This document shows, piece by piece, positions 3,593 to 33,807 of a stretch of DNA of 34,125 nucleotides; position 1 is the stretch's first letter, and each line of letters starts with the position of its first letter. Origin of the DNA: a virus. Its lineage: Duplodnaviria; Heunggongvirae; Uroviricota; Caudoviricetes. The stretch spans positions 1 through 34,125 of IMG/VR virus record IMGVR_UViG_2563366806_000008; one strand, given 5' to 3'. Under the pieces are notes generated by a model. It was not told the DNA's origin and ran no database searches. It saw nothing but the letters and a program-made list of their open reading frames with translations. Both the position numbers and the translations under genes were made by a program.

Positions 3593-6040
3593 TTAACCGT
3601 CATGCATCATGCTGGCACGGGCGCGCGCACGTTTATCCCGCTCGTATTTTTCGAGTGCATCCTGTAACTGGCGGTCGAGCTGTGTCCCCTGCGCAGTACC
3701 GCCCGTCAGGTTGATGTGATATTCGTTTTTACTCTGGTCCACATAAGAGCGGCCAGCCGGTGCCGTGACCGGCTGGTAAGCCTGATAGCCTGCATAAGAG
3801 CTGGTCGCCGGAATATAACCACCGGTGCCATACGTGGCGGCATTAGTCCTTGCGGCGGTCTGGTCAAGTGTGTCTGACTCTTTGTTGATAACACCGAGTT
3901 TTTCCAGCACCCAGTCAATACCACTGCGCAGTTTGTTGAACGCATTAAGCGGCAGCATCAGTGCGTCAGCCAGTGCCTGCCCGAACATGACGCCCGTGTC
4001 ACGGCAACGGTTCAGGGTGTCCTGGGTGGCTTTAACCGGGGCAATCAGGTTTTTAAACCACTGCCACGCGGCCTGTAACTTTTCGCCCAGCCAGTCAAAC
4101 ACCGGCTTCAGTGGCGTGAACAGTTCTCCCACCGGCGCAAATGCCGCTTTCAGCCCTTCCACCACACCGCCAAAGAATGCGCTGACAGGCTCCCAGTATT
4201 TACGGATAAGCAACGCCCCGGCGACAATTGCAGCCACCACGGCCACAACCGGCCAGCTAATCGCCCCGATGGCCGTCATAACGGCACTACCAACCGTCGT
4301 GAAGATTGCACCCATTGCGCCTGCTGCCGCGATGATGGCATTGATGCCGGTGATAACCGGCCAGGCTGCAAGACCAATTGCACCGATGATGCCAATAAGC
4401 GCCAGCGCGCCACCGGCAATGAGGCCGATGGTTGACGCCAGTGATTTGTTTTTCTGGATCCAGCCGTCGAGTTTTAACACATACTTTGTGGCCGTCTGAG
4501 TGAGCTTACGCAGTGTGCCTTCCTGCTGGTCAAACAGGTCAGTCCCCACCGCCTCATAAGCGGACTGAAACTCCTTAAAGTCACCACCGAGGTTATCCTG
4601 CATGATTTTAACCAGCTCTTCCGTTTTACCGTCCGATGCTTTCAGCGTGGCGGTCAGCTTATCCAGTTTTCCGCTTGCTGCCGCTGCCAGTAAAACGTTC
4701 GCTGATTTCAGGGCTTCCTCACCAAAAATGGTTTTAAGGTATTCCCCCTTCTGAGACGTTCCCAGCTTGTGTTTATCAAAGCTGACCTGAATCTCTTTCA
4801 GAATGGTGAACAACGGACGCATATTTCCCTTTTTGTCCGAGGTTTTAACGCCAAGCTCTTTTAGTGCTTCCCATGCTTTCCCTGTCGGAGCCTGTAATCG
4901 GGTGACAACGGCACTACTACCCGTACCCGCCATTGACCCCCTGATGTTATTGTCATGCAGCACACCTGTCATGGCTGCAGCCTGTTCAAGACTTACACCT
5001 GCCGTCCTCGCAACCGGACCGAGGTAAGTCAGTGCATCACTGAGTCCCTGAAAATCAGCCGCCGACTTATTCATCGTTGCCGACAACACGTCGCCCACAT
5101 GGCTGACATCATCATTTGACAGTTGAAAGGATGCCTTAGTCCCCAGCAACAGTTGCGCGTTTTCTTCCATCGACCGCTGATTCGCCAGTGCCATATTCAG
5201 CGTTACCGGCGTTGCCGCCTGAATAGCCGCAGCATCCCCGCCGGCTTTCGCAATGATAATCTGTGCACCGGCTGCATCATCCGCCGAGGCTGCGGTATTG
5301 TCGCCGAGCTGGCGCGCCTGCTTGCGGAGTGCGGTCATTTCGGCGGAGTCTTTTGCCACACCCAGCACGGCCTGCAATTCTGAGTTTTTCTGCGCAAACT
5401 CATAACCGGGCATCAGCAGCTTAACTCCGGCCATCGTTCCCGCCGCCGCAATCCCCACACCGGCAGCGCCTACCGAGGCCATATTTCCAGCCAGTTCCTT
5501 TCCGGCCTGATAACGCTGTTTTACTGCATTAAGTTTTGCCTGTTGCGCACTGACACGCGCCAGCGCGTCGCGCTGACGGTTAAGCTGTGCGGTGGTTTCA
5601 CTGATACGGTTTTTCAGCCCTCGTTCATCATGCGCCAGATTACGGGTATTAATACCCGCCTGACTCAATTCCTGACGCTGGCGCTGTACCGACAATCTCA
5701 GGCTGTTATATTTCGCCTGTAACTCAGACGCATTTTTACGCGCGGCTTCCATTGCCTTTGCCTGTGCATTTGTCGGTCGTTCAGTATTTTTAAACTGGAC
5801 AGCCAGAGCTGCGGCTTCCTGTCTGGCTTTTTTCAGTTCCTGACCAGTCACGGCGAGCTGTGCACTGGTCTTGCGAAATCCCTCAATACGGGATGCCTGA
5901 CCGTTCAGCTCGCGCAGTGATTTTTGTGTTTCCCGGATATCCCCCGACAGCGATTTGCTCGCTGTGCGGATGGATTTAAACGGGCGGGATGCCTGGTCAA
6001 CAGCCCTGAGCAATACCTGTAATTTTACATTGTTACTCAT
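3593..6040 (-). CDS. T: Tail tape-measure protein T (815 aa)
   Basis: 815 aa; Ala/Gly-rich hydrophobic central region and coiled-coil N-terminus typical of tape-measure proteins; follows E/E'. Confidence 0.85.
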   Translation of the reverse strand: MSNNVKLQVLLRAVDQASRPFKSIRTASKSLSGDIRETQKSLRELNGQASRIEGFRKTSAQLAVTGQELKKARQEAAALAVQFKNTERPTNAQAKAMEAARKNASELQAKYNSLRLSVQRQRQELSQAGINTRNLAHDERGLKNRISETTAQLNRQRDALARVSAQQAKLNAVKQRYQAGKELAGNMASVGAAGVGIAAAGTMAGVKLLMPGYEFAQKNSELQAVLGVAKDSAEMTALRKQARQLGDNTAASADDAAGAQIIIAKAGGDAAAIQAATPVTLNMALANQRSMEENAQLLLGTKASFQLSNDDVSHVGDVLSATMNKSAADFQGLSDALTYLGPVARTAGVSLEQAAAMTGVLHDNNIRGSMAGTGSSAVVTRLQAPTGKAWEALKELGVKTSDKKGNMRPLFTILKEIQVSFDKHKLGTSQKGEYLKTIFGEEALKSANVLLAAAASGKLDKLTATLKASDGKTEELVKIMQDNLGGDFKEFQSAYEAVGTDLFDQQEGTLRKLTQTATKYVLKLDGWIQKNKSLASTIGLIAGGALALIGIIGAIGLAAWPVITGINAIIAAAGAMGAIFTTVGSAVMTAIGAISWPVVAVVAAIVAGALLIRKYWEPVSAFFGGVVEGLKAAFAPVGELFTPLKPVFDWLGEKLQAAWQWFKNLIAPVKATQDTLNRCRDTGVMFGQALADALMLPLNAFNKLRSGIDWVLEKLGVINKESDTLDQTAARTNAATYGTGGYIPATSSYAGYQAYQPVTAPAGRSYVDQSKNEYHINLTGGTAQGTQLDRQLQDALEKYERDKRARARASMMHDG

Positions 6041-6460
6041 TCGTGTTTCCGCTTCGCCGGAGCGCCTTTTCGCGCCATGTGATGAGTTCGGTCAGACTCA
6101 TGGGATACAGTTCTGATGGCGGCCAGTGAAATATCACTGCCACATCCGCCATCAGGTCATCGACCGACAGATTTTTAGGAAACGTTACTGCACCGAGTTC
6201 GGCGACAAAAAACCGACCACCTTACCGGCCAGCGCCACAAGGTCAGGCAGTTCCAACGCGGCAACTTCCTGCTCGGTCAGCATCGGTGCCGTCATGCGCG
6301 GCAGCACTTTAATCAGTGCATCGACTTCGGAGTTTGCGACCGCAGCCAGACTGACACCGCGCAGCGTCCCGGCACTGGGTTTCATCAGCGTGACCTGTTC
6401 GATAACCTGCTCACCACGTTTGACCGGATTTTCCAGGGTAATGACATTTTCTTTGTCCAT
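6033..6460 (-). CDS. E+E': Tail assembly chaperone E+E' produced by -1 programmed frameshift at TTTTTTG (mRNA positions 6212 to 6206); predicted 142 aa
   Basis: Hand translation of the -1 frame after the slip gives VAELGAVTFPKNLSVDDLMADVAVIFHWPPSELYPMSLTELITWREKALRRSGNTNE then TAA at 6035-6033; total 142 aa equals the P2 E+E' length. Confidence 0.6.
6185..6460 (-). CDS. E: Tail assembly chaperone E (91 aa, zero-frame product)
   Basis: 91 aa between FII and T; ends ...VVGFLSPNSVQ; contains the slippery TTTTTTG near its 3' end. Confidence 0.8.
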   Translation of the reverse strand: MDKENVITLENPVKRGEQVIEQVTLMKPSAGTLRGVSLAAVANSEVDALIKVLPRMTAPMLTEQEVAALELPDLVALAGKVVGFLSPNSVQ

Positions 6461-6516: not shown

Positions 6517-7035
6517 TCACAGGCCGATATTACGGCGGTGTTGCTCCAGCCGGTCGACGCCGTTCACCTTCTCAATCATGTTGATGGTGTCGATTTCGAC
6601 CAGCTCCTTACCGTCCATCGTCAGCCGGAAATAGGTGCAGACCACGGAGATTTTCGACTCGGTGTCTTCTCCCTGTTTACCCTCTCCGGTGTCGATTTCT
6701 TTCTGACGTCCACGCATGACCACTTCGACGGCCACCGTTTCGCCGGTATCGTCGCGCTGGTAAGAGCCAGCAAAACGAATCGGCACGGCATCCACACCGG
6801 TTGCGGCGTAAAGCTCCCAGATAACCGAATCCGGGAAGCCCCCGAGCGACCACTCCATTGACAGCGCATCGTCATCAAGGCCGAGGTCTACCGGTGCGCT
6901 GCCGTTCATCCCCGCACCGCGATAGTTTTCGAGCTTACGGGTCAGTTTTGGCAGCGTGACGGACTTTGCGACGCCCTGATAGCTGTAGCCGTTCAGAAAG
7001 ACGTTCATTAACTTGAGTTTGCGCGGCATTGCCAT
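6517..7035 (-). CDS. FII: Tail tube protein FII (172 aa)
   Basis: Synteny FI-FII-E; 172 aa as in P2. Confidence 0.8.
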   Translation of the reverse strand: MAMPRKLKLMNVFLNGYSYQGVAKSVTLPKLTRKLENYRGAGMNGSAPVDLGLDDDALSMEWSLGGFPDSVIWELYAATGVDAVPIRFAGSYQRDDTGETVAVEVVMRGRQKEIDTGEGKQGEDTESKISVVCTYFRLTMDGKELVEIDTINMIEKVNGVDRLEQHRRNIGL

Positions 7036-8524: not shown

Positions 8525-9751
8525 TCAACCTTTCAATGCTTCAATCGTATTATTAAGTCGACGCAACAGGTCGTCGTACGTCAATATGTCTATCATGTTG
8601 GCGTACTTACGTTTGATTATCTCAAAATCAAGCAACTGACCGTCGGTCATGTTACCGTTCGCTATCTGATCGCGTCCGACAATGATGATGGCTTTTGGGT
8701 TAGATATACGAATACACATTCCCGCTGGCAGAGAATTCTTGTAGGCATTCGTAAGCTCTTTTTCACCCTTAACACCCCATTTAGATAAATGAAAAATATA
8801 CTTTTCAGCCTGCATAATACCGCCGCTAAGTTCTGATGTAGGAATATAGTTATCGCGATAGGGCGTCTTGCGAAGGATCTTATCATCAAACGGCTTTTTG
8901 ACTTCGATGATATCAAGGTTGCCGTTTGCATCCACCAGTGCAATGTCTATAAACCGATTTGTTTTAGCCGAAGGATTAGAGTAATAGTCGAAAATTTTAA
9001 CCTTCTCGAGGACCTTGATATATTTTGGAAAAAGTAATGTGATGAAGGGTATCATCAGGCTCTGCCAGTCATCTTCAGACAAGTTAGTTTTGTTATTCAA
9101 CGCATCCTGGATAATGTCTCTTATGAGTGTATATTTCTCAATTTCGAGCTTATTTAAAACTTCTAAATCCAGTTTGTCGGTTTTTCTGATCACTGTTTTT
9201 CTGTTTAGGTAATGTTCATACCGTTCGCGAGCATCTTTCATACCATCAAGATAACCTGCGAGAATAGCGTGAACCCTTGCATTAGCATAGCGATCCAGTT
9301 CCCCTGTGTTGGGGAATTTACTTTGCAACTCCTGGAATACGCTTTTTGGTATAGCTTCCGGCTTATCTCCTCCGATGATGATGGGATTAGTGTGATCGAG
9401 TAGTTTTGAAAGCCGACCAAAAATGGAGACGTTGCGTTCTGACGCAAATACTTTCCTTTCAAGCTTGATGGACTTATGTATAAGGACATCTCGATTAATG
9501 CTTAGAATCCGTCCCGGAACTGTTATGTATTCATTATTAAGCGTGCCAAAATTAAAGGAATATTCGTAATCATTAAAATCCTGAACGGTTGACGGTGGGT
9601 TTCTCAAGTCCTGGAGTTGAAAGTTAAAAATTCGTGAAATGCATACTGTTTGAAATTTATTTAAACTCTCCCAAACCCAAATTATTTGTTCTCCGCTGTC
9701 ACCGTCGTAAGTCATAACAACGTCATTTGATACAAAGCTGAACTGTAACAT
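8525..9751 (-). CDS. Cargo protein (408 aa): N-terminal domain of unknown function plus C-terminal PD-(D/E)xK / RecB-like nuclease domain; candidate anti-phage effector, possibly Shedu (DUF4263)-like
   Basis: AT-rich ORF in the G/FI slot with good RBS (agagga) before ATG at 9751; motifs FIDIALVD (D269/D274), IIEVKK (E283-x-K285) and QAEKY (Q314-xxx-Y318) match nuclease motifs I, II, III. Confidence 0.6.
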   Translation of the reverse strand: MLQFSFVSNDVVMTYDGDSGEQIIWVWESLNKFQTVCISRIFNFQLQDLRNPPSTVQDFNDYEYSFNFGTLNNEYITVPGRILSINRDVLIHKSIKLERKVFASERNVSIFGRLSKLLDHTNPIIIGGDKPEAIPKSVFQELQSKFPNTGELDRYANARVHAILAGYLDGMKDARERYEHYLNRKTVIRKTDKLDLEVLNKLEIEKYTLIRDIIQDALNNKTNLSEDDWQSLMIPFITLLFPKYIKVLEKVKIFDYYSNPSAKTNRFIDIALVDANGNLDIIEVKKPFDDKILRKTPYRDNYIPTSELSGGIMQAEKYIFHLSKWGVKGEKELTNAYKNSLPAGMCIRISNPKAIIIVGRDQIANGNMTDGQLLDFEIIKRKYANMIDILTYDDLLRRLNNTIEALKG

Positions 9752-10572: not shown

Positions 10573-12501
10573 TTACACCTGTGCGACGTTATACCATGTT
10601 CCATTGATGTATTTTTGTATTGGTCTGAATACTGCGGGGTCATCACCATCGACTTCACCGACAATACCAAGCCCGGTAATTACGTGCCCTGCTTTCTCAT
10701 ACATCACACCTTTTTGCATAGTCTGAACAACACGTGTGCCCAGGCGAATATCTCGTACATAGCGAGAATCCGATTCATCTTTGGTATATGCACCAACATC
10801 TCCCGCAGAGGGTTTGCGGGTTGTGGTGTAAAACTCTGACCAGTCAGCCTCAAATCCATAACCATCACGCGCTGAACGATAATAAATACCGCCGTTCTTA
10901 TAATTCACACGGAACTGTACGGCAGGGCAACTCCCCTCGCTCATATTGAAATGGAGGATTAATGTCGATGCGCCACCAATATTTGCTTGATAGACCCCGC
11001 TATTCCAGTTCCAGCCAACAGCTTTATCATTTCCGACAGTGCTTCCTGTTTTCCCTAAAGCAAATGCAGGCTGCTGGTTTTTCGTGTTGTAGTCTCGTCG
11101 CCAGCCAGGAGCATAAGCATCACCATGATTAATATAAGTGAATTGAGCGTTAGTGGTGCCGCCTCCGGTGGAAGTGCTTGGTGTTGTTACACGGATGGTC
11201 ATGGCACCTTTATTACCCATAACCTCAATAACGCAACCTGCAAGATGAATAGTTCCACAGCCAGTATCGGTAATAATTTTATTATTGCCGTATGACCATG
11301 AACATTTGCACATCCAGTACGGATGATTAAATGCACCACGGGAATCCAGCCATTCAATAAACTGAGCGGTTGTCCAGTTTCCGGCTTCAGTGCTCAAAGC
11401 GCCGCTATAAGCACGACAGGCACCGATATTTTTCGTGAAGGTATCCTTTCCCGGAATATCCGCACCGTTCTGATCTTTCTGAAGACGTTTTTCAGCATTG
11501 TCATAGGCAGACTTCACTGCTTTTGGTGTTGCGGCCAGCGTTTCAGAATCACTGTTGGTGGCGCTACTGAGCTGGACAAGGCCTTTTCGCGCCGTGGTGG
11601 CATCCTGCGCAGTGTATTTCCCGTTAGCAAGGTCATACGCTGTCTTAACCGCCTTTGGCGTTGCTGCAAGCGTTTCAGAATCGCTGTTGGTGGCGCTACT
11701 GAGCTGGACAAGACCTTTTCGCGCTGTGGTGGCGTCCTGTGCAGTGTATTTCCCGTTAGCAAGGTCATATGCTGCCTTTACCGCTTTTGGTGTTGCGGCG
11801 AGCGTTTCAGACGTGCTGTTGGTGGCGCTACTGAGCTGGACAAGGCCTTTTCGCGCTGTGGTGGCATCCTGCGCAGTGTATTTCCCGTTAGCAAGATCAT
11901 ACGCGGCCTTTACCGCTTTCGGCGTTGCGGCCAGTGTTTCAGACGTGCTGTTGATCGCACTGCTTAACTGAGTAAAACCTTTTGCGGTCAGCGAGGCGTC
12001 CGGGTGACGTCGTGACTGTTCATGCTCTGCAATTTTGTCATCAACGTAATCCTGCGTCGCCATCACCGTTGTGGTGTCAATGGTCAGCGCCACTGAGGCC
12101 ACACTGCTGACGATGATGACCATGCGACAGGTCTGCGAACGCCCTGAGCCTTCGGCAAGAGCTGGCTTATAACTTTCGGCCATGTTCGCCACGGCAATTA
12201 ATGTTCCCGCATCATCGTACAGGCCAAGCTCACGCATCCAGAAACCGCCCACCTCCGGCGGAATAACCAGCTCTGCGATAATATAATTACTGTTTCGTTT
12301 GTCCTGGCTGATTTTGTTCAGCGCATGTCGCCAGACTTCATGGATAAGCCCGGTCTGTCCGGCATCCGGGACAGGCAATTTACCACCGCCATCCCCGACG
12401 GCCATCGTGGTAATGTTGACCTTCCGCCCTCCAGGCGCGGTTGCCGCTGCCAGCTTTGCTGCACCGGCAGTGGTGATAACGGTTCTGAATTTTGTGCTCA
12501 T
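10573..12501 (-). CDS. H: Tail fibre protein H (642 aa)
   Basis: N-terminus MSTKFRTVITTAGAAKLAAA... typical of P2-type fibres; internal SETLAATPKAVK fibre repeats; variable C-terminal part. Confidence 0.85.
   Translation of the reverse strand: MSTKFRTVITTAGAAKLAAATAPGGRKVNITTMAVGDGGGKLPVPDAGQTGLIHEVWRHALNKISQDKRNSNYIIAELVIPPEVGGFWMRELGLYDDAGTLIAVANMAESYKPALAEGSGRSQTCRMVIIVSSVASVALTIDTTTVMATQDYVDDKIAEHEQSRRHPDASLTAKGFTQLSSAINSTSETLAATPKAVKAAYDLANGKYTAQDATTARKGLVQLSSATNSTSETLAATPKAVKAAYDLANGKYTAQDATTARKGLVQLSSATNSDSETLAATPKAVKTAYDLANGKYTAQDATTARKGLVQLSSATNSDSETLAATPKAVKSAYDNAEKRLQKDQNGADIPGKDTFTKNIGACRAYSGALSTEAGNWTTAQFIEWLDSRGAFNHPYWMCKCSWSYGNNKIITDTGCGTIHLAGCVIEVMGNKGAMTIRVTTPSTSTGGGTTNAQFTYINHGDAYAPGWRRDYNTKNQQPAFALGKTGSTVGNDKAVGWNWNSGVYQANIGGASTLILHFNMSEGSCPAVQFRVNYKNGGIYYRSARDGYGFEADWSEFYTTTRKPSAGDVGAYTKDESDSRYVRDIRLGTRVVQTMQKGVMYEKAGHVITGLGIVGEVDGDDPAVFRPIQKYINGTWYNVAQV
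11497..11982 (-). repeat. In-frame tandem repeats within H: about 3.7 copies of a 132-bp (44-aa) unit KGLVQLSSATNS(T/D)SETLAATPKAVKAAYDLANGKYTAQDATTAR
   Basis: Read directly from the H translation (residues about 174-335) and the near-identical DNA units starting near 11521, 11653, 11785, 11917. Confidence 0.8.
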
Positions 12502-13042: not shown

Positions 13043-13943
13043 CCGAGCCTCCGGTCACGACGCGGTATTCGGTGCAGAAAGACGCCTGCGTACTGTTGAG
13101 CACAATGTCGGCCAGTGGTGCAGCCAGCTCGACACGCTGCACGCCTTCCACATGCAAAGCGGCATAAATAGCAGACAGACGGATGTCGCGCCCCAGCCGG
13201 TGCTGTGCCGTGATGTACGCTTCCAGTTTTTTCACGGCAGCAGCGCGGATGGGTTCGCTTTCGGGACCAGGGTAAAGGTAAAGCGTGGCGTTTATCTGGT
13301 ATTCAACGATGGCGGCAGACTGCACGGTCACGCGGTCGGCCACCGGCCTGACGTCCTCACCATTCAGGGCGTTGCGCACCACCGCCAGCAGGTCTTCGGA
13401 TGCGACACCGTTATTTTCGCGAGACAGCACGGAGATAGTGACGCAGGCCGGAGACGGACTGGTGACAGAGATATCCGCGACACGCCCGTCGGCACTGCGA
13501 CCATGATACTGATAGGCTCCCACCGACCCGGCGACGCTTAAGCCCTCAAACGCCTGCTGAATACGCAGACGATAATCGGTGTCAGACTCCATCACTGCCG
13601 GTGTCGGCGGGATGGTCGAATCATCTGCCGGGGTGATAGTCAGGCGCGTGGTGTTGTAATTGGCACCAATCACATCAAGGTCATTACCGGCGGCACAGGC
13701 CAGCATCACCGCCCGCGCAGCCTCATTCACACGCTGACGCCAGATAAGCTCACGATAAGCATTTTCCTCCAGCAGTTTGACGAGAGGCTCAGATTCCAGC
13801 GTCAGGGTACGGGCGACCGCCTCCTGCTGGTCTTCCGGGTAAAGGGAAATCAGTGTCGCCTTGCGTTCAGCGAGAATGATTTCAAAGTCCAGCTCCTCGA
13901 CCACATCCGGTGCGGGTAGCTGGTTCAGGTCGATAATCGGCAT
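13035..13943 (-). CDS. J: Baseplate protein J (302 aa)
   Basis: Synteny W-J-I; 302 aa as in P2. Confidence 0.8.
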   Translation of the reverse strand: MPIIDLNQLPAPDVVEELDFEIILAERKATLISLYPEDQQEAVARTLTLESEPLVKLLEENAYRELIWRQRVNEAARAVMLACAAGNDLDVIGANYNTTRLTITPADDSTIPPTPAVMESDTDYRLRIQQAFEGLSVAGSVGAYQYHGRSADGRVADISVTSPSPACVTISVLSRENNGVASEDLLAVVRNALNGEDVRPVADRVTVQSAAIVEYQINATLYLYPGPESEPIRAAAVKKLEAYITAQHRLGRDIRLSAIYAALHVEGVQRVELAAPLADIVLNSTQASFCTEYRVVTGGSDE

Positions 13944-15010: not shown

Positions 15011-15754
15011 ATGGATAAATATCAAATCTGGGAAAATCAAAAAGACACCATCGCCCACCAAGAGTATTTAAAAATCTCCGACACCAATTTACTTGGACAT
15101 ATGCATATTGCCAATTACGAAGTTGTCCAACATGAATTAAGCAAATTCAACTCCCCTGACATTGTTTCCCGTCATTCATTTAACAGAGACAAATTTAAAA
15201 AAGAACATTTAAACATATCAAGACACCTTTTCAATTATATATCTTCAGCATTATCATTTAGAGATTCAACGCGCAACCTACTTAAAACAAAAGCATTAAA
15301 TATTGCCGACATTAAAATCAAATCAGAGGCATTCATCAATCATGAATTCCGAAATAATCCAGTAATAAAATTAATGGAGGATTTAAGAAACATCCTGACG
15401 CATCAAAACATGATCGCCCCATCAATATCATCATTCATGCACCTCCAAAGAAATATAAACATGCACGGCTTTTCATTTAAGATTGAAAGAATCTTAAACA
15501 ATGACAGAACCACCAAACAAACAAAAGAATATTTAATCTCACTAAAGCAAAAAAACTTATTCATTTTACCGATAATAGAAGAATACCAATACACGACTCT
15601 TAAGTATCAACACTGGCTTTTAGCAAGTATCTACACTGTTCATCAAGATACTTACCAAGAATACTGGAATGCGAGAAAAAACATCATGAACGAATGGGGA
15701 GGAGACACTCAGCTAATACCTAAAGAGAGTGAGCTCACTTATTTAACCAGATAA
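15011..15754 (+). CDS. Cargo ORF of unknown function (247 aa), opposite strand to the late operons; candidate accessory/defence gene
   Basis: Strongly AT-rich ORF with RBS aagaagga before the ATG; Asn/Lys/Ile-rich; occupies the S/V junction (P2 orf30 position) on the opposite strand; contains R126-x4-H131 (RNILTH). Confidence 0.6.
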   Translation: MDKYQIWENQKDTIAHQEYLKISDTNLLGHMHIANYEVVQHELSKFNSPDIVSRHSFNRDKFKKEHLNISRHLFNYISSALSFRDSTRNLLKTKALNIADIKIKSEAFINHEFRNNPVIKLMEDLRNILTHQNMIAPSISSFMHLQRNINMHGFSFKIERILNNDRTTKQTKEYLISLKQKNLFILPIIEEYQYTTLKYQHWLLASIYTVHQDTYQEYWNARKNIMNEWGGDTQLIPKESELTYLTR

Positions 15755-25542: not shown

Positions 25543-26472
25543 TCAAACCAGGCTTTTGCCTTGCTTCATTTTTTTAGATGAGTCTAAAAATTTGAAATTA
25601 TCATTAGATGAAAATATTCTTTCTGCGGTATGCCGAATGACTGAAGTATTGAAGACCGCAGCCTGCTCCTCATTACAACTGAATACACCCTCATGACCAT
25701 CAAACTCGCCCGCCAAAAGAAGGTTTTTTGATACTGGGAACAAAACTAAAGTGTCTTTTACACCAAACCCGGGGGAATAAGGGCCTCGTGCTAATTCAGG
25801 ATTAGTCCACATTAAGCAAACTGGGTTATCTGAAGTTATAAATGACCCTTGCCCATCAGATATGGTCATAAGTGACCAGTTGCGTTGATGCAACAACTTG
25901 GTGATAACAGGTACACATTTCATTTCCATATCTATCATGAACTCTCTGATTACATTGATTTCGAAATTATCCCCATCCACAAAATTTTTAATTTTTTCGT
26001 AAGCGAGATCATATGGCAAAGACTCACCCATTTCTTTCTCATAAGCTAATTTGCAATCGTCCCAACGCTCAGCCGAACTAACTGAGGATTTCATGATAAA
26101 CTTTGCTATTTGTTTCAATGGAGATGATAAATGTTCTCGCTGAGCAGGCGTACGTATTGCCAATAAGGAAATAAACTCCAGAATAACATCTTTGGTTTCG
26201 CCTGAAAACTCGCCCCCCTCCTCAAGTTTTCTTAAATGAGTAGCGACACTGCCTTCAAACTCTGCAAGAGAACTCTCGAGATAGTTTGGGTCAACTCCAT
26301 CCAATTCTAATCGGTTGAAATCTCTAACCCCCCCGACATTGCGAGTATTACTCTCAAAGGTTTTGCGCTCCTTTAAATCTATTACAGTTAATTTTGATTT
26401 TTTCCCCCCATTACTTGTAAACCCTTTCAAATAACATTGGGATAAAAAATGATGATGCCTTGCAACACTCAT
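25543..26472 (-). CDS. DUF4238-type cargo protein (309 aa from Met at 26472); candidate single-gene anti-phage protein
   Basis: AT-rich ORF in the tin/old slot; N-terminal HHFLSQCYLKGF resembles the DUF4238 signature (HH-x-x-P/S-Q-x-YL-x-x-F); RBS ggag before ATG at 26472; ORF extends upstream to 26514. Confidence 0.65.
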   Translation of the reverse strand: MSVARHHHFLSQCYLKGFTSNGGKKSKLTVIDLKERKTFESNTRNVGGVRDFNRLELDGVDPNYLESSLAEFEGSVATHLRKLEEGGEFSGETKDVILEFISLLAIRTPAQREHLSSPLKQIAKFIMKSSVSSAERWDDCKLAYEKEMGESLPYDLAYEKIKNFVDGDNFEINVIREFMIDMEMKCVPVITKLLHQRNWSLMTISDGQGSFITSDNPVCLMWTNPELARGPYSPGFGVKDTLVLFPVSKNLLLAGEFDGHEGVFSCNEEQAAVFNTSVIRHTAERIFSSNDNFKFLDSSKKMKQGKSLV

Positions 26473-26575
26473 ACTCAGCTCCGTTATGGCTATAATCGCA
26501 TAAATAATAAGCACTTATATTGCAATCATCTAGTTAAATACACAATATTTATGACTCCGAAATTTCATTAAATCA

Positions 26576-29012: not shown

Positions 29013-29233
29013 GCCGTTCTCCGGTAATGTTTGTTTTTTGCTTCAAAGACTGACTGACAGGAAACACAACGCGTGGCTGACGGATAAGCCGCACGACGGG
29101 CAGCAGGTATTGGCGCATCACACTCTTCGCAAACCAGCGAAGAAACACCGCAATGTTTTACCCTTGCCGCGTTAATCTGGCGCTCCAGTAATTCAGCCTG
29201 TTGTTCCTGAATAAAATCTACGTTGTCCGGCAT
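29009..29233 (-). CDS. TraR/DksA-family C4 zinc-finger protein (orf82-like, 74 aa)
   Basis: CEECDAPIPAARRAAYPSATRCVSCQ: C-x2-C-x17-C-x2-C zinc finger typical of TraR/DksA-like phage proteins. Confidence 0.65.
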   Translation of the reverse strand: MPDNVDFIQEQQAELLERQINAARVKHCGVSSLVCEECDAPIPAARRAAYPSATRCVSCQSVFEAKNKHYRRTA

Positions 29234-30355: not shown

Positions 30356-31576
30356 TGTAGATTCAATCTGTCAATGCAACACCCCTTTCAATTATCTCTT
30401 TCGGTGTTTTGAACTTCAGTGTCTTTCTCGGTCTGTTGTTTAGCTGAGCAGCAACCAGATCTAGTTCATGTTGAGTATATTGGGCAAGACATGTCTTTTT
30501 AGGAAAGTACTGCCGAATTAGCCCATTTGTGTTCTCATTTGTTCCCCGCTGCCAAGGACTCTGAGGATCGCAGAAGTAAACTTTAACGCCGGTGCTGACA
30601 GTAAATTCTAGATGTCTGGCCAGTTCCATTCCTCTGTCCCATGTCAGTGATTTTCTGAGTTCTGACGGTAAACTCAGGAATTTGTCGGTAAGAGCCTGAT
30701 TTACTGAGACAGAATCTTTGCCCCTGAGTCTAAGGATGATCGTATAACGTGATTTTCGGTCTACAAGTGTGGCTATATGAGAGTTTTTTGTACCTGAGAC
30801 TAAATCGCCCTCCCAATGCCCCAGAGAGCGTCTGTTATCGATATTTCGGGAACGTTCGTGAATTGGTGTTCCGTTCACTATGTTAATCGTACCTCTTTCG
30901 CCTTTGCGGGTATGACGCCTGCCATGGCGAAGGCTATGCGACCGTCGCAGATGCTGTATATTCAGGTGGTGTAGCGCTTCACGGCTACGAAAGTACAGCG
31001 TTTTATAAATTGTCTCAGGTGATATTCGCAGCGTTTTTTGACGTGGTTTTGTTCGCCTTAACCATCCTGATATTTGCTCTGGAGACCATTTCATCTCCAG
31101 CTTTTCCAGAACAAGCTTTCGCAATGGTAAATTTTGATCCAGTAAGCACGGTTTTGGCCTTTTCGCCATTCTGTTGGCTCGGTTATTAGCATCAACAGCT
31201 TTGTAATAGCGTCTGCCCCGATTACGCTGAACTTCACGTGAGATCGTCGAAGGACTGCGATTCAGCGCAGTAGCTATCGCACGAATGCTCATTTTGGCTG
31301 ACAAACCAGCTCGTATCTCCTCGCGCTCAGACAGTGTCAGGTGAGCTACAGCCCGCTTACGCTCATGGGGTTTTATGCCGCCAGTATCCCTTAACATAGT
31401 GAAGATCGTTCCGGGTTTTGAACCCAGGATATTCGCTATTTCACTGAAGCCTGTTCCGTTCTTCCATAGTTCAAAAACAGAGGCTTTTTCCTCTGCTGTA
31501 AATGTTCGTCTCATTCAAAAAACCTCCGCAACCCCATGTTTTCACATAACTGTTGCGTTGACCAATTGAATCTACA
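30356..31576 (-). mobile_element. IS30 insertion sequence, 1221 bp, with imperfect 26-bp terminal inverted repeats and 2-bp AG target-site duplication
   Basis: Ends tgtagattcaatctgtcaatgcaaca (30356-30381) and tgtagattcaattggtcaacgcaaca (reverse complement of 31551-31576); flanking AG at 30354-30355 and 31577-31578. Confidence 0.9.
30363..31514 (-). CDS. insI: IS30-family transposase (383 aa)
   Basis: Translation MRRTFTAEEKASVFELWKNGTGFSEIANILG... with HTH N-terminus and DDE catalytic region; 383 aa as for IS30 transposase. Confidence 0.9.
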   Translation of the reverse strand: MRRTFTAEEKASVFELWKNGTGFSEIANILGSKPGTIFTMLRDTGGIKPHERKRAVAHLTLSEREEIRAGLSAKMSIRAIATALNRSPSTISREVQRNRGRRYYKAVDANNRANRMAKRPKPCLLDQNLPLRKLVLEKLEMKWSPEQISGWLRRTKPRQKTLRISPETIYKTLYFRSREALHHLNIQHLRRSHSLRHGRRHTRKGERGTINIVNGTPIHERSRNIDNRRSLGHWEGDLVSGTKNSHIATLVDRKSRYTIILRLRGKDSVSVNQALTDKFLSLPSELRKSLTWDRGMELARHLEFTVSTGVKVYFCDPQSPWQRGTNENTNGLIRQYFPKKTCLAQYTQHELDLVAAQLNNRPRKTLKFKTPKEIIERGVALTD

Positions 31577-33611: not shown

Positions 33612-33638
33612 TGACACCCTAAATCTCCCTTACACGGG
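33612..33638. repeat. Prophage attachment core, right copy (int-proximal junction)
   Basis: Exact 27-bp copy of 1507-1533; here followed by one extra T and the inverted repeat gggcttat / ataagccc. Confidence 0.8.
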
Positions 33639-33807
33639 CTTATTTTTTTATGCATAAGCCCTATCTCTGGTAACCGTCTTCCATTGACCACATCGATAGA
33701 ATCCTCCTTCATAGCACGATGCCTTTCACTTATCGGCATCGTGCTCCCACAGGTTCCGGCTACGCACAGCCAGAACGCGCATATTTGACGCTTACCAAAA
33801 AATATTC

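Follow-up and report, generated by a model that had tools for sequence, protein, structure and literature searches.

The DNA stretch analysed here, a viral sequence of 34,125 nucleotides referred to below as the window, contains on its minus strand a short gene, E, with the heptamer TTTTTTG close to its stop codon. The question raised by this locus is whether E gives only the 91-amino acid protein apparent from its open reading frame or also, by a programmed -1 frameshift at the heptamer, a fusion of 142 amino acids, as proposed in a preliminary description of the same sequence. The window almost certainly holds a P2-type (Peduovirus) E. coli prophage, with positions 6033-6460 (minus strand) comprising its E/E+E' tail-assembly chaperone locus. 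The site is an ordinary feature, the already known programmed -1 frameshift of P2 E/E+E'.

The anatomy of the locus can be read directly from the letters. Gene E (6460-6185, minus strand), delimited by the open reading frame list and translation and supported by Pfam and P2 homology, encodes gpE, a tail assembly chaperone of 91 amino acids, in the 0 frame. According to the exact translation, the slippery heptamer T TTT TTG (6212-6206, minus strand) starts 248 nt past the E ATG and is therefore read as GGT TTT TTG (G83 F84 L85), in the X XXY YYZ phase with E, as at the P2 site. Six sense codons (SPNSVQ) follow the TTG in the 0 frame before the E stop TAA (6187-6185), in agreement with the earlier placement of the heptamer seven codons ahead of that stop. 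The E' frame (6033-6206, minus strand), in which base 6206 is read again, is open in the -1 frame for 57 codons, VAELGAVTFPKNLSVDDLMADVAVIFHWPPSELYPMSLTELITWREKALRRSGNTNE, and ends with TAA at 6035-6033. The 57-codon extension ending at 6033, originally translated by hand, was thus reproduced by the computed translation from 6206, which had been set beforehand as a test and ran into no early stop past the slip site. The whole E+E' coding region (6033-6460, minus strand) corresponds by translation and by the P2 record to a 142-amino acid fusion made via -1 frameshift. The expected overlap with the start of gene T at 6040 amounts to 8 nt, ATGAGTAA, shared between the end of E' and the beginning of T (ATG 6040-6038). 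Gene T (3593-6040, minus strand), assigned from the open reading frame list and P2 annotation, encodes the tape measure protein of 815 amino acids. Directly upstream of E lies FII (6517-7035, minus strand), the gene for the tail tube protein of 172 amino acids by P2 annotation, preceded by FI (8238-7048, minus strand), which is colinear with P2. Within the FETUD operon, E/E' thus has FII (tail tube) on one side and T (tape measure) on the other, and the open reading frame list and colinearity give the same gene order as in P2, FI-FII-E-E'-T-U-D.

Taken alone, the heptamer pattern does not exceed chance. On the two strands of the window TTTTTTG is found 21 times (10.4 expected), and 12 in-phase X XXY YYZ sites are followed by 30 or more open codons in the -1 frame, mostly in shadow frames. 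With so many long -1 extensions behind in-phase heptamers, the pattern has no diagnostic value of its own, and this site stands out from chance by its homology to P2 and the comparative evidence taken together.

Compared directly, the DNA of the locus is 97.4% identical to that of bacteriophage P2, and the E+E' product shares 140 of its 142 residues with P2 gpE+E' (89/91 in gpE and 57/57 in E'; P2 reference proteins AAD03291/AAD03292). The total length that had been matched to P2 is consequently right, and the extension not only resembles P2 E' but is identical to it. The P2 record (GenBank AF063097.1) lists both gpE and gpE+E', the latter with the remark '-1 frameshift; essential tail protein', and marks the -1 translational frameshift at the equivalent heptamer, in line with what had been claimed for the tail chaperone gene E of the window. 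Shared with P2 are the heptamer T TTT TTG at gene nucleotides 249-255, the products of 91 and 142 amino acids, the location between FII and T and the 8-nt overlap with T. The two differ in a pair of conservative N-terminal substitutions (D2 and E10 in the window, N2 and D10 in P2) and in the E stop codon, which is TAA in the window and TGA in P2. Four nucleotide differences from P2 are found 3' of the heptamer, and they are synonymous only in the -1 frame. Frameshifting in P2 reportedly takes place with an efficiency of approximately 10%, and E' is essential according to the GenBank notes on P2; by analogy with P2, a fusion made at a low percentage and essential for tail assembly would be expected here as well. 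Production of the 91-amino acid E and the 142-amino acid E+E' at TTTTTTG has been described for P2 (Lynch et al., 2010, PMC3091744).

Both halves of the product also belong to known tail protein families. Pfam PF10109 (Phage_TAC_7) matches residues 7-85 with 47.3 bits (cutoff 25) and PF06528 (Phage_P2_GpE) residues 104-139 with 76.3-78.7 bits (cutoff 23), and the PHROG tail families phrog_103 and phrog_1756 match the two halves. In tblastn searches 401 of the 418 matched phage records contained both halves, joined from two pieces. Product lengths predicted by the slip model equal those of the annotated joined coding sequences of P2, PSP3 and KS14.

Conservation of the site was observed directly in a set of 14 divergent P2-family genomes, 13 of Peduoviridae and that of Vibrio phage VHML. 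All 14 have an in-phase X XXY YYZ heptamer within the overlap and an open -1 frame; the heptamer is TTTTTTG in 12, and the remaining two have TTTTTTC and GGGAAAG. Among IMG/VR loci the heptamer is present in 80/80 (78 TTTTTTG, 2 TTTTTTA). Variability by codon position was calculated from 54 unique colinear sequences of relatives. Before the site it follows the 0 frame (0.045/0.026/0.188 for positions 1, 2 and 3), and at the site the variable position moves from the third position of the 0 frame to the third position of the -1 frame: the -1-frame values are 0.059/0.037/0.189 for the 32 nt from the E stop to an internal ATG and 0.029/0.019/0.096 in the GpE domain. Purifying selection acts in the -1 frame past the site.

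These data also bear on the proposal that E' is initiated independently at the internal ATG (6152-6150, minus strand), the start of a 39-amino acid 'GpE family' open reading frame in automatic annotation, and is made as a 39-amino acid protein for which a frameshift is unneeded. RefSeq calls this open reading frame in several phage records and in an E. coli copy that is 99.5% identical, and 54/54 close relatives have the ATG. The anti-Shine-Dalgarno (anti-SD) match upstream of it is, with -5.3 kcal/mol, not worse than that of the E start (-5.1), so that SD strength does not discriminate between the two. The 32-nt linker ahead of the ATG, however, has the periodicity of the -1 frame, and in all 54 sequences it is free of stops in that frame and interrupted by stops in each of the two others; in the divergent relatives the -1 frame is open all the way back to the heptamer in 14/14. 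Furthermore, RSA1, Mannheimia phage 2256AP1 and VHML (3/14 of the divergent genomes) have no start codon at the position equivalent to the ATG, in the window the ATG lies within a 10-bp stem, and the P2 record calls the product a frameshift fusion. A free-standing E' is therefore highly improbable, and we regard E+E' as a frameshift product.

On the basis of the P2 experiments and the general model of slippage, the following course of events may be proposed. Most ribosomes would read E in the 0 frame and terminate at TAA 6187-6185, giving the 91-amino acid gpE, and a minority would slip by -1 nt on T TTT TTG (6212-6206). In the standard tandem-slippage model the P-site tRNA-Phe would move from UUU to UUU and the A-site tRNA-Leu from UUG to UUU. 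The slipped ribosomes would then read 57 further codons in the -1 frame and end 8 nt into T with the 142-amino acid gpE+E', and a ribosomal -1 slip after Leu85 predicts the tryptic junction peptide VVGFLVAELGAVTFPK. The ratio of gpE to gpE+E' would be fixed by the frequency of slippage, and in tail assembly both proteins would work on the tape measure protein, as the lambda G/GT pair suggests. Nothing in the sequence speaks against this explanation.

The change of frame might instead take place in the RNA, if the polymerase inserts an extra U while stuttering on the T6 run. The E+E' junction would in that case be Phe-Phe-Val and the expected peptide VVGFFVAELGAVTFPK, as it would be after a slip in the P site only. 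A homopolymer of six T favours polymerase stutter, a scan for terminator-like elements flags a weak hairpin immediately 5' of the T run, and one sequence alone cannot separate an RNA-level from a ribosome-level -1 change. Productive polymerase slippage in E. coli, however, is not known with fewer than approximately 8-9 residues, and T6 is short for it. All 94 sequences examined keep the seventh base and the X XXY YYZ phase, and phase would be irrelevant to the polymerase; one relative has G GGA AAG, without a long homopolymer. As for the flagged hairpin with its T run (6233-6212), four of its eight pairs are G-U and it is broken in relatives by a G-to-A change at gene position 244; it was rejected both as a terminator and as a sign of transcriptional slippage. 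Slippage of the polymerase can hardly be credited here, and slippage of the ribosome is the preferred explanation.

The 45 nt past the heptamer fold no better than shuffled sequences in 14/14 relatives (z from -1.2 to +1.5), and a stable hairpin or pseudoknot of the dnaX type, 5-9 nt 3' of the heptamer, was found in none of the 14. The absence of downstream structure agrees with an earlier report (Lynch et al., 2010, PMC3091744). As there is no recognisable downstream stimulator, the efficiency of the frameshift is not predictable from the sequence. When 113 nt from the heptamer on are folded, z is -1.97, owing to a hairpin that begins 51 nt downstream (6113-6155, minus strand). It has a perfect 10-bp stem, CUGAUGGCGG/CCGCCAUCAG, and encloses the internal AUG at 6152-6150. 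This hairpin is limited to the P2/PSP3/Klebsiella/Yersinia clade, and RNAalifold applied to the 54 sequences gave conserved pairs with essentially no compensatory changes, so that a functional role for it is not established; the distance of 51 nt, the restriction to one clade and the lack of covariation rule it out as a general stimulator. A small hairpin CGCCG/CGGUG located 1 nt 3' of the heptamer (pairs G258-U269, C259-G268, C260-G267 and G261-C266) is too near and too weak for a stimulator, and its conservation results from dual coding, since the 0 frame reads Pro-Lys/Asn there and the -1 frame Ala-Glu.

Upstream of the heptamer there is an SD-like motif, AAGGUGGUC (6223-6215, minus strand), complementary to the 3' end of 16S rRNA. 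Its anti-SD match of -12.8 kcal/mol is the strongest in the gene, and across the E/E' region the motif is the top match in the window and in 10/14 divergent relatives. It ends 2 nt ahead of the heptamer in the window, and the gap is 1-5 nt in the window and its clade. Lys80 is encoded by AAG in 50 of 51 Lys codons, compared to 52 AAG versus 168 AAA for Lys elsewhere in E, and the synonymous positions of the motif fall within the 9 of 78 third positions that are invariant in E. Synonymous recoding equalled the observed anti-SD strength in 3-98% of trials, depending on the genome; a hand-worked Fisher combination of these fractions gave p ~0.015, uncorrected for relatedness, and the test supports the motif only weakly. 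The residues encoded by the motif, Gly, Lys/Glu and Val, by themselves favour strings of this kind. Relatives from Burkholderia have a different G-rich motif 10-12 nt upstream of the heptamer, and the SD spacing of dnaX (approximately 10-14 nt 5') is seen only in the Burkholderia phages phiE202 and KS14 and not in the window. A duplex this near the slip site has been reported to attenuate -1 shifting, not to stimulate it (PMC6321510), and at such short spacing the effect of the motif could be attenuation instead of stimulation. In a literature search that covered work other than the original 2002 P2 study, no SD-like stimulator specific to the P2 site was found. From its sequence properties the motif may tentatively be viewed as under selection for tuning the chaperone frameshift of the P2 family, a suggestion we consider rather doubtful. 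If true, it would set the E:E+E' ratio via ribosome pausing or tension at the slip site.

Two well-known systems are useful for comparison. The tau/gamma frameshift of E. coli dnaX has in common with E/E' a -1 slip on X XXY YYZ and a 5' element complementary to the anti-SD. It takes place on A AAA AAG, approximately 10 nt past the SD and a few nucleotides ahead of a strong hairpin, and it shortens the protein, whereas the E/E' locus of the window has the SD-like motif 1-5 nt off and no structure within 45 nt, and the shift lengthens the protein. The other is lambda G/GT, which represents the conserved tail-chaperone -1 frameshift of long-tailed dsDNA phages. In lambda as in E/E', two open reading frames, of which the second is in the -1 frame, follow the gene for the major tail (tube) protein and precede that for the tape measure; they overlap, and the overlap contains a canonical slippery sequence. 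The lambda slip site is G GGA AAG, and the tail of lambda is non-contractile. Its G/GT chaperones are said to have been described in 1993 and in studies of 2004, 2013 and 2014; the P2 E/E+E' frameshift was reportedly described in 2002 and is the contractile-tail counterpart. We know of no sequence similarity between P2 E/E' and lambda G/T. In lambda a low-frequency -1 shift near the end of the first open reading frame gives two proteins with a common N-terminus in a ratio set by the slip (Atkins, 2016, PMC5009743). A single-sequence AlphaFold2 model of the 142-amino acid fusion had a mean pLDDT of 60.8, with the E' part below 50. Foldseek comparison of this low-confidence model with the PDB gave no match at E<=0.001, and phmmer against the PDB gave no meaningful match.

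Unlike in P2 itself, the gene in the window resides in a prophage beside yegQ that has an IS30-type insertion and other cargo genes. Shedu and DUF4238 defence genes occupy P2 variable slots. The IS30-type element is 1221 bp in length, with 26-nt inverted repeats and a transposase of 383 amino acids (HTH_38+rve), and is inserted at P2 coordinate 26426/7, inside orf78 and 32 bp upstream of replication gene B. With the element in the early operon, this copy may never express its tail operon. This raises the possibility that the prophage is defective and that E+E' is an inherited relic, intact in sequence, yet neither made nor selected at present. On the other hand, every tail gene (FI, FII, E, E', T, U and D) is full length and colinear with P2, and recent purifying selection is indicated by the almost exclusively synonymous changes that separate E/E' from P2. 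B and A could still be driven by read-through or by promoters borne by the element. We consider a relic unlikely, and it would in any case concern the present use of the E/E' site and not its identity, which is that of the P2 E/E+E' frameshift.

The locus is also instructive for annotation. Standard pipelines split it into a 91-amino acid 'tail assembly protein' and an artificial 39-amino acid 'GpE family' open reading frame; in the RefSeq copy mentioned above, E (91 amino acids) is accompanied by a separate 39-amino acid 'GpE family phage tail protein' and no fusion is given. Spotting the heptamer restores the 142-amino acid product, and the recoding event is recoverable exactly from the raw sequence alone. 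Copies of the locus with at least 95% DNA identity are found in approximately 1,570 of 5,426 complete E. coli genomes.

The minus-strand region 6460-6033 was read and translated exactly. Gene E (6460-6185) codes for 91 amino acids, and the heptamer TTTTTTG, proposed in the preliminary description as a -1 frameshift site seven codons ahead of the E stop, lies at 6212-6206, 248 nt past the E ATG. It is read in the E frame as G-GT TTT TTG, i.e., in the X XXY YYZ phase, and is followed by six sense codons (SPNSVQ) and TAA. From the re-read base 6206 the -1 frame is open for the 57 codons expected of the extension E', with no early stop, and ends with TAA at 6035-6033, the fused product E+E' being 142 aa. 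As had also been noted, the end of E' overlaps the start of the next gene, the tape-measure gene T (ATG at 6040; 815 aa), the overlap being ATGAGTAA.

A 701-nt query around the heptamer matched 82 phage records; identity was 95-99% for 74 of these and 97.4% for bacteriophage P2 itself. The P2 record contains gpE and a joined CDS for gpE+E' ('shares amino terminus with gpE; -1 frameshift; essential tail protein'), and a 'site of -1 translational frameshift' is marked at the base following an identical heptamer. The P2 E/E+E' frameshift is already known, the -1 shift at TTTTTTG giving 91-aa E and 142-aa E+E' (Lynch et al., 2010; PMC3091744). The length of 142 aa given for the P2 fusion in the preliminary description is right, and 140 of the 142 residues are identical in the window, the E' part fully so. 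Along the 428 nt of the locus, the window and P2 differ at 11 positions: two alter N-terminal residues (D2N and E10D, window to P2), five are ahead of the site and synonymous in the 0 frame, and four are past the site and all synonymous in the -1 frame, one of these also switching the E stop from TAA in the window to TGA in P2. Pfam families Phage_TAC_7 ('tail assembly chaperone proteins, E, or 41 or 14') and Phage_P2_GpE match residues 7-85 and 104-139, respectively, both well over threshold, and both halves match tail families in PHROGs. By every testable criterion the locus belongs to the P2 gpE/gpE+E' family. Copies at ≥95% identity are found in approximately 1,570 of 5,426 complete E. coli genomes.

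The slippery pattern on its own is no more than chance. TTTTTTG occurs 21 times in the window (10.4 expected), and 12 in-phase X XXY YYZ sites are followed by 30 or more open codons in the -1 frame, most of these sites lying in shadow frames that are non-coding. One in-phase A AAA AAC (29033-29039, minus strand) is located in the early region near orf81-orf83. It stands shortly before a 74-codon open frame ends, and the -1 frame continues for 98 codons; this is probably just an overlap of adjacent genes. Support for the E frameshift comes from homology and comparison. A tblastn search with the 142-aa fusion gave 418 phage records, in 401 of which one place, joined from two pieces, covers at least 80% of the query. 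Thirteen relatives with protein identities down to 34% were fetched, namely 12 Peduoviridae (P2, Klebsiella phage, PSP3, Yersinia phage, phiE202, Cartapus, SopEPhi, KS14, RSA1, Shewanella phage, Acica and Mannheimia phage) and Vibrio phage VHML. In each of these genomes and in the window (14 in total), the E/E' overlap contains an in-phase X XXY YYZ heptamer, after which the -1 frame stays open until a stop at or close to the start of the tape-measure gene. The heptamer is T TTT TTG in 12 of them, T TTT TTC in VHML and G GGA AAG in the Mannheimia phage, while among 80 IMG/VR loci TTTTTTG is found in 78 and TTTTTTA in two. For P2, PSP3 and KS14, whose joined CDSs are annotated, the slip model predicts fusion lengths equal to the annotated ones. 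The coordinates and counts of the preliminary description are all correct, and both its observation and its interpretation are right.

RefSeq and GenBank annotations commonly show E' as a free-standing ORF of approximately 37-43 aa ('GpE family phage tail protein') and not as a fusion, for example in E. coli NZ_LR778153.1 (L014, 909-1028) and in six phage records (L003, L004, L005, L008, L009 and L013). Such annotation implies that E' is initiated independently, here as a 39-aa protein from the internal ATG at 6152-6150 (minus strand). This is contradicted by how variability is distributed over codon positions among 54 colinear sequences, all unique and 79-100% identical. The means for positions 1/2/3 are 0.045/0.026/0.188 in the 0 frame ahead of the site, and past the E stop the peak shifts to position 3 of the -1 frame, both in the 32-nt linker that separates the E stop from the internal ATG (0.059/0.037/0.189) and in the GpE domain (0.029/0.019/0.096). 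In all 54 sequences only the -1 frame of the linker is free of stops, each of the other two frames being interrupted. The periodicity and the stop-free frame indicate that translation has moved into the -1 frame before any possible internal start is reached. In addition, the -1 frame is always open from the heptamer onward, and RSA1, the Mannheimia phage and VHML have no start codon at the equivalent position. Shine-Dalgarno (SD) strength does not discriminate, as the start of E itself is equally weak by that measure. The free-standing ORF is a systematic annotation artefact at this locus. A strong hairpin with a perfect 10-bp stem (CUGAUGGCGG/CCGCCAUCAG; 6113-6155, minus strand), 51 nt downstream of the heptamer, encloses the internal AUG and, by burying it, might suppress spurious internal initiation. 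It is found only in the P2/PSP3/Klebsiella/Yersinia clade, and no compensatory changes were seen in its stem, i.e., covariation is absent.

The best-supported reading, following the established simultaneous-slippage model, is that tRNA-Phe and tRNA-Leu would slip in tandem by -1 on U UUU UUG. Transcriptional slippage on the T6 run could also change the frame, and a terminator scan does flag a hairpin with a T-run; this is unlikely, however, given that the run is short, the flagged hairpin is G-U rich and unconserved, codon phase and the seventh base are kept in 94 of 94 sequences (the window, 13 phage relatives and 80 viral contigs), and one relative has GGGAAAG instead. Regarding stimulators of tandem tRNA slippage, the 45 nt following the heptamer fold no better than shuffles in any of the 14 relatives, in agreement with the published absence of stimulatory hairpins in P2 and Burkholderia relatives (Lynch et al., 2010; PMC3091744). 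The site falls outside the dnaX-type definition because SD spacing and a downstream hairpin are both absent.

Two nucleotides ahead of the heptamer ends AAGGUGGUC (6223-6215, minus strand), which is complementary to the 16S rRNA 3' end (-12.8 kcal/mol) and is the strongest anti-SD match across the whole E/E' region of the window. Ten of 14 divergent relatives likewise have their strongest anti-SD match of the region beside the heptamer; Burkholderia phages have a different G-rich motif 10-12 nt upstream. Third positions are invariant in nine of 78 degenerate codons of E, Lys80 and Val81 being two of the nine, and at position 80, 50 of 51 Lys codons are AAG (AAA 168 vs. AAG 52 for other Lys in E). 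The synonymous-recoding null was exceeded weakly, the per-genome fractions spanning 0.03-0.98; combined by hand with Fisher's method, uncorrected for relatedness, they give p ~0.015. An SD duplex at such short spacing has been reported to attenuate, not stimulate, -1 shifting (PMC6321510). We regard the putative modulator role of AAGGUGGUC as a lead and not a finding. The bases just 3' of the heptamer (6197-6205, minus strand) are nearly invariant among distant relatives (nnGCCGAA). The 0 frame reads them as Pro-Lys/Asn and the -1 frame as Ala-Glu. Their conservation is most simply explained by constraint from dual coding; the 3' context may also influence slippage.

A tail-chaperone role for E and E+E' is suggested by the name of the Pfam family, the notes in the P2 record, the position of the gene and the lambda G/GT paradigm, in which the tape measure is bound by the short and the long chaperone and the tube protein is recruited through the extension (PMC5009743). 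The P2-type locus is the contractile-tail counterpart of G/GT.

The window is an E. coli chromosome segment that begins in yegQ (1-1362; its 1,500-nt flank is 100% identical to several E. coli chromosomes). The adjoining P2-type prophage (1507-33648) is bounded by the P2 att core, its ends (1507-1533 and 33622-33648) aligning to the 27-bp attP core of P2 (24356-24382). The tail operon FI-FII-E-E'-T-U-D is full length and colinear with P2. An IS30-type element of 1221 bp (30356-31576) carries inverted repeats of 26 nt, which are 88% complementary, and encodes on the minus strand a transposase of 383 aa (HTH_38+rve). Its insertion point, P2 coordinate 26426/7, falls within orf78 and 32 bp ahead of replication gene B, and the early operon is thus interrupted. 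The prophage may be defective through this insertion, and the E/E+E' site may be a relic whose tail operon is not expressed from this copy, although the identity of the E/E+E' locus is unaffected.

A 408-aa Shedu nuclease SduA (8525-9751, minus strand; Pfam SduA_C 3e-33, PADLOC SduA 1e-219) is encoded in a low-GC stretch (approximately 39-46% in 1-kb windows). It takes the position of fun(Z) in P2, with tail-fibre assembly gene G on one side and sheath gene FI on the other. A 323-aa DUF4238 protein (25543-26514, minus strand; Pfam 5e-39, PADLOC 'DUF4238-Pers' 2e-219) stands in for old/tin/orf91 between gpA and gpQ; strong protection against T7 has been reported for a single DUF4238 protein from this P2 hotspot (PMC9122126). 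In the P2 orf30 slot between S and V, a 35% GC island carries on the opposite strand a 247-aa ORF (15011-15754, plus strand), with no match in Pfam or PADLOC and a full-length match to PHROG 12680, which is functionally unassigned in PHROGs. Finally, tail fibre gene H contains a tandem repeat of 132 bp (44 codons; 3.4 copies, 89% identity; 11500-11943, minus strand). Every copy aligns to one 210-bp stretch of P2 (~13252-13461), and the window therefore has more copies of the unit than P2.
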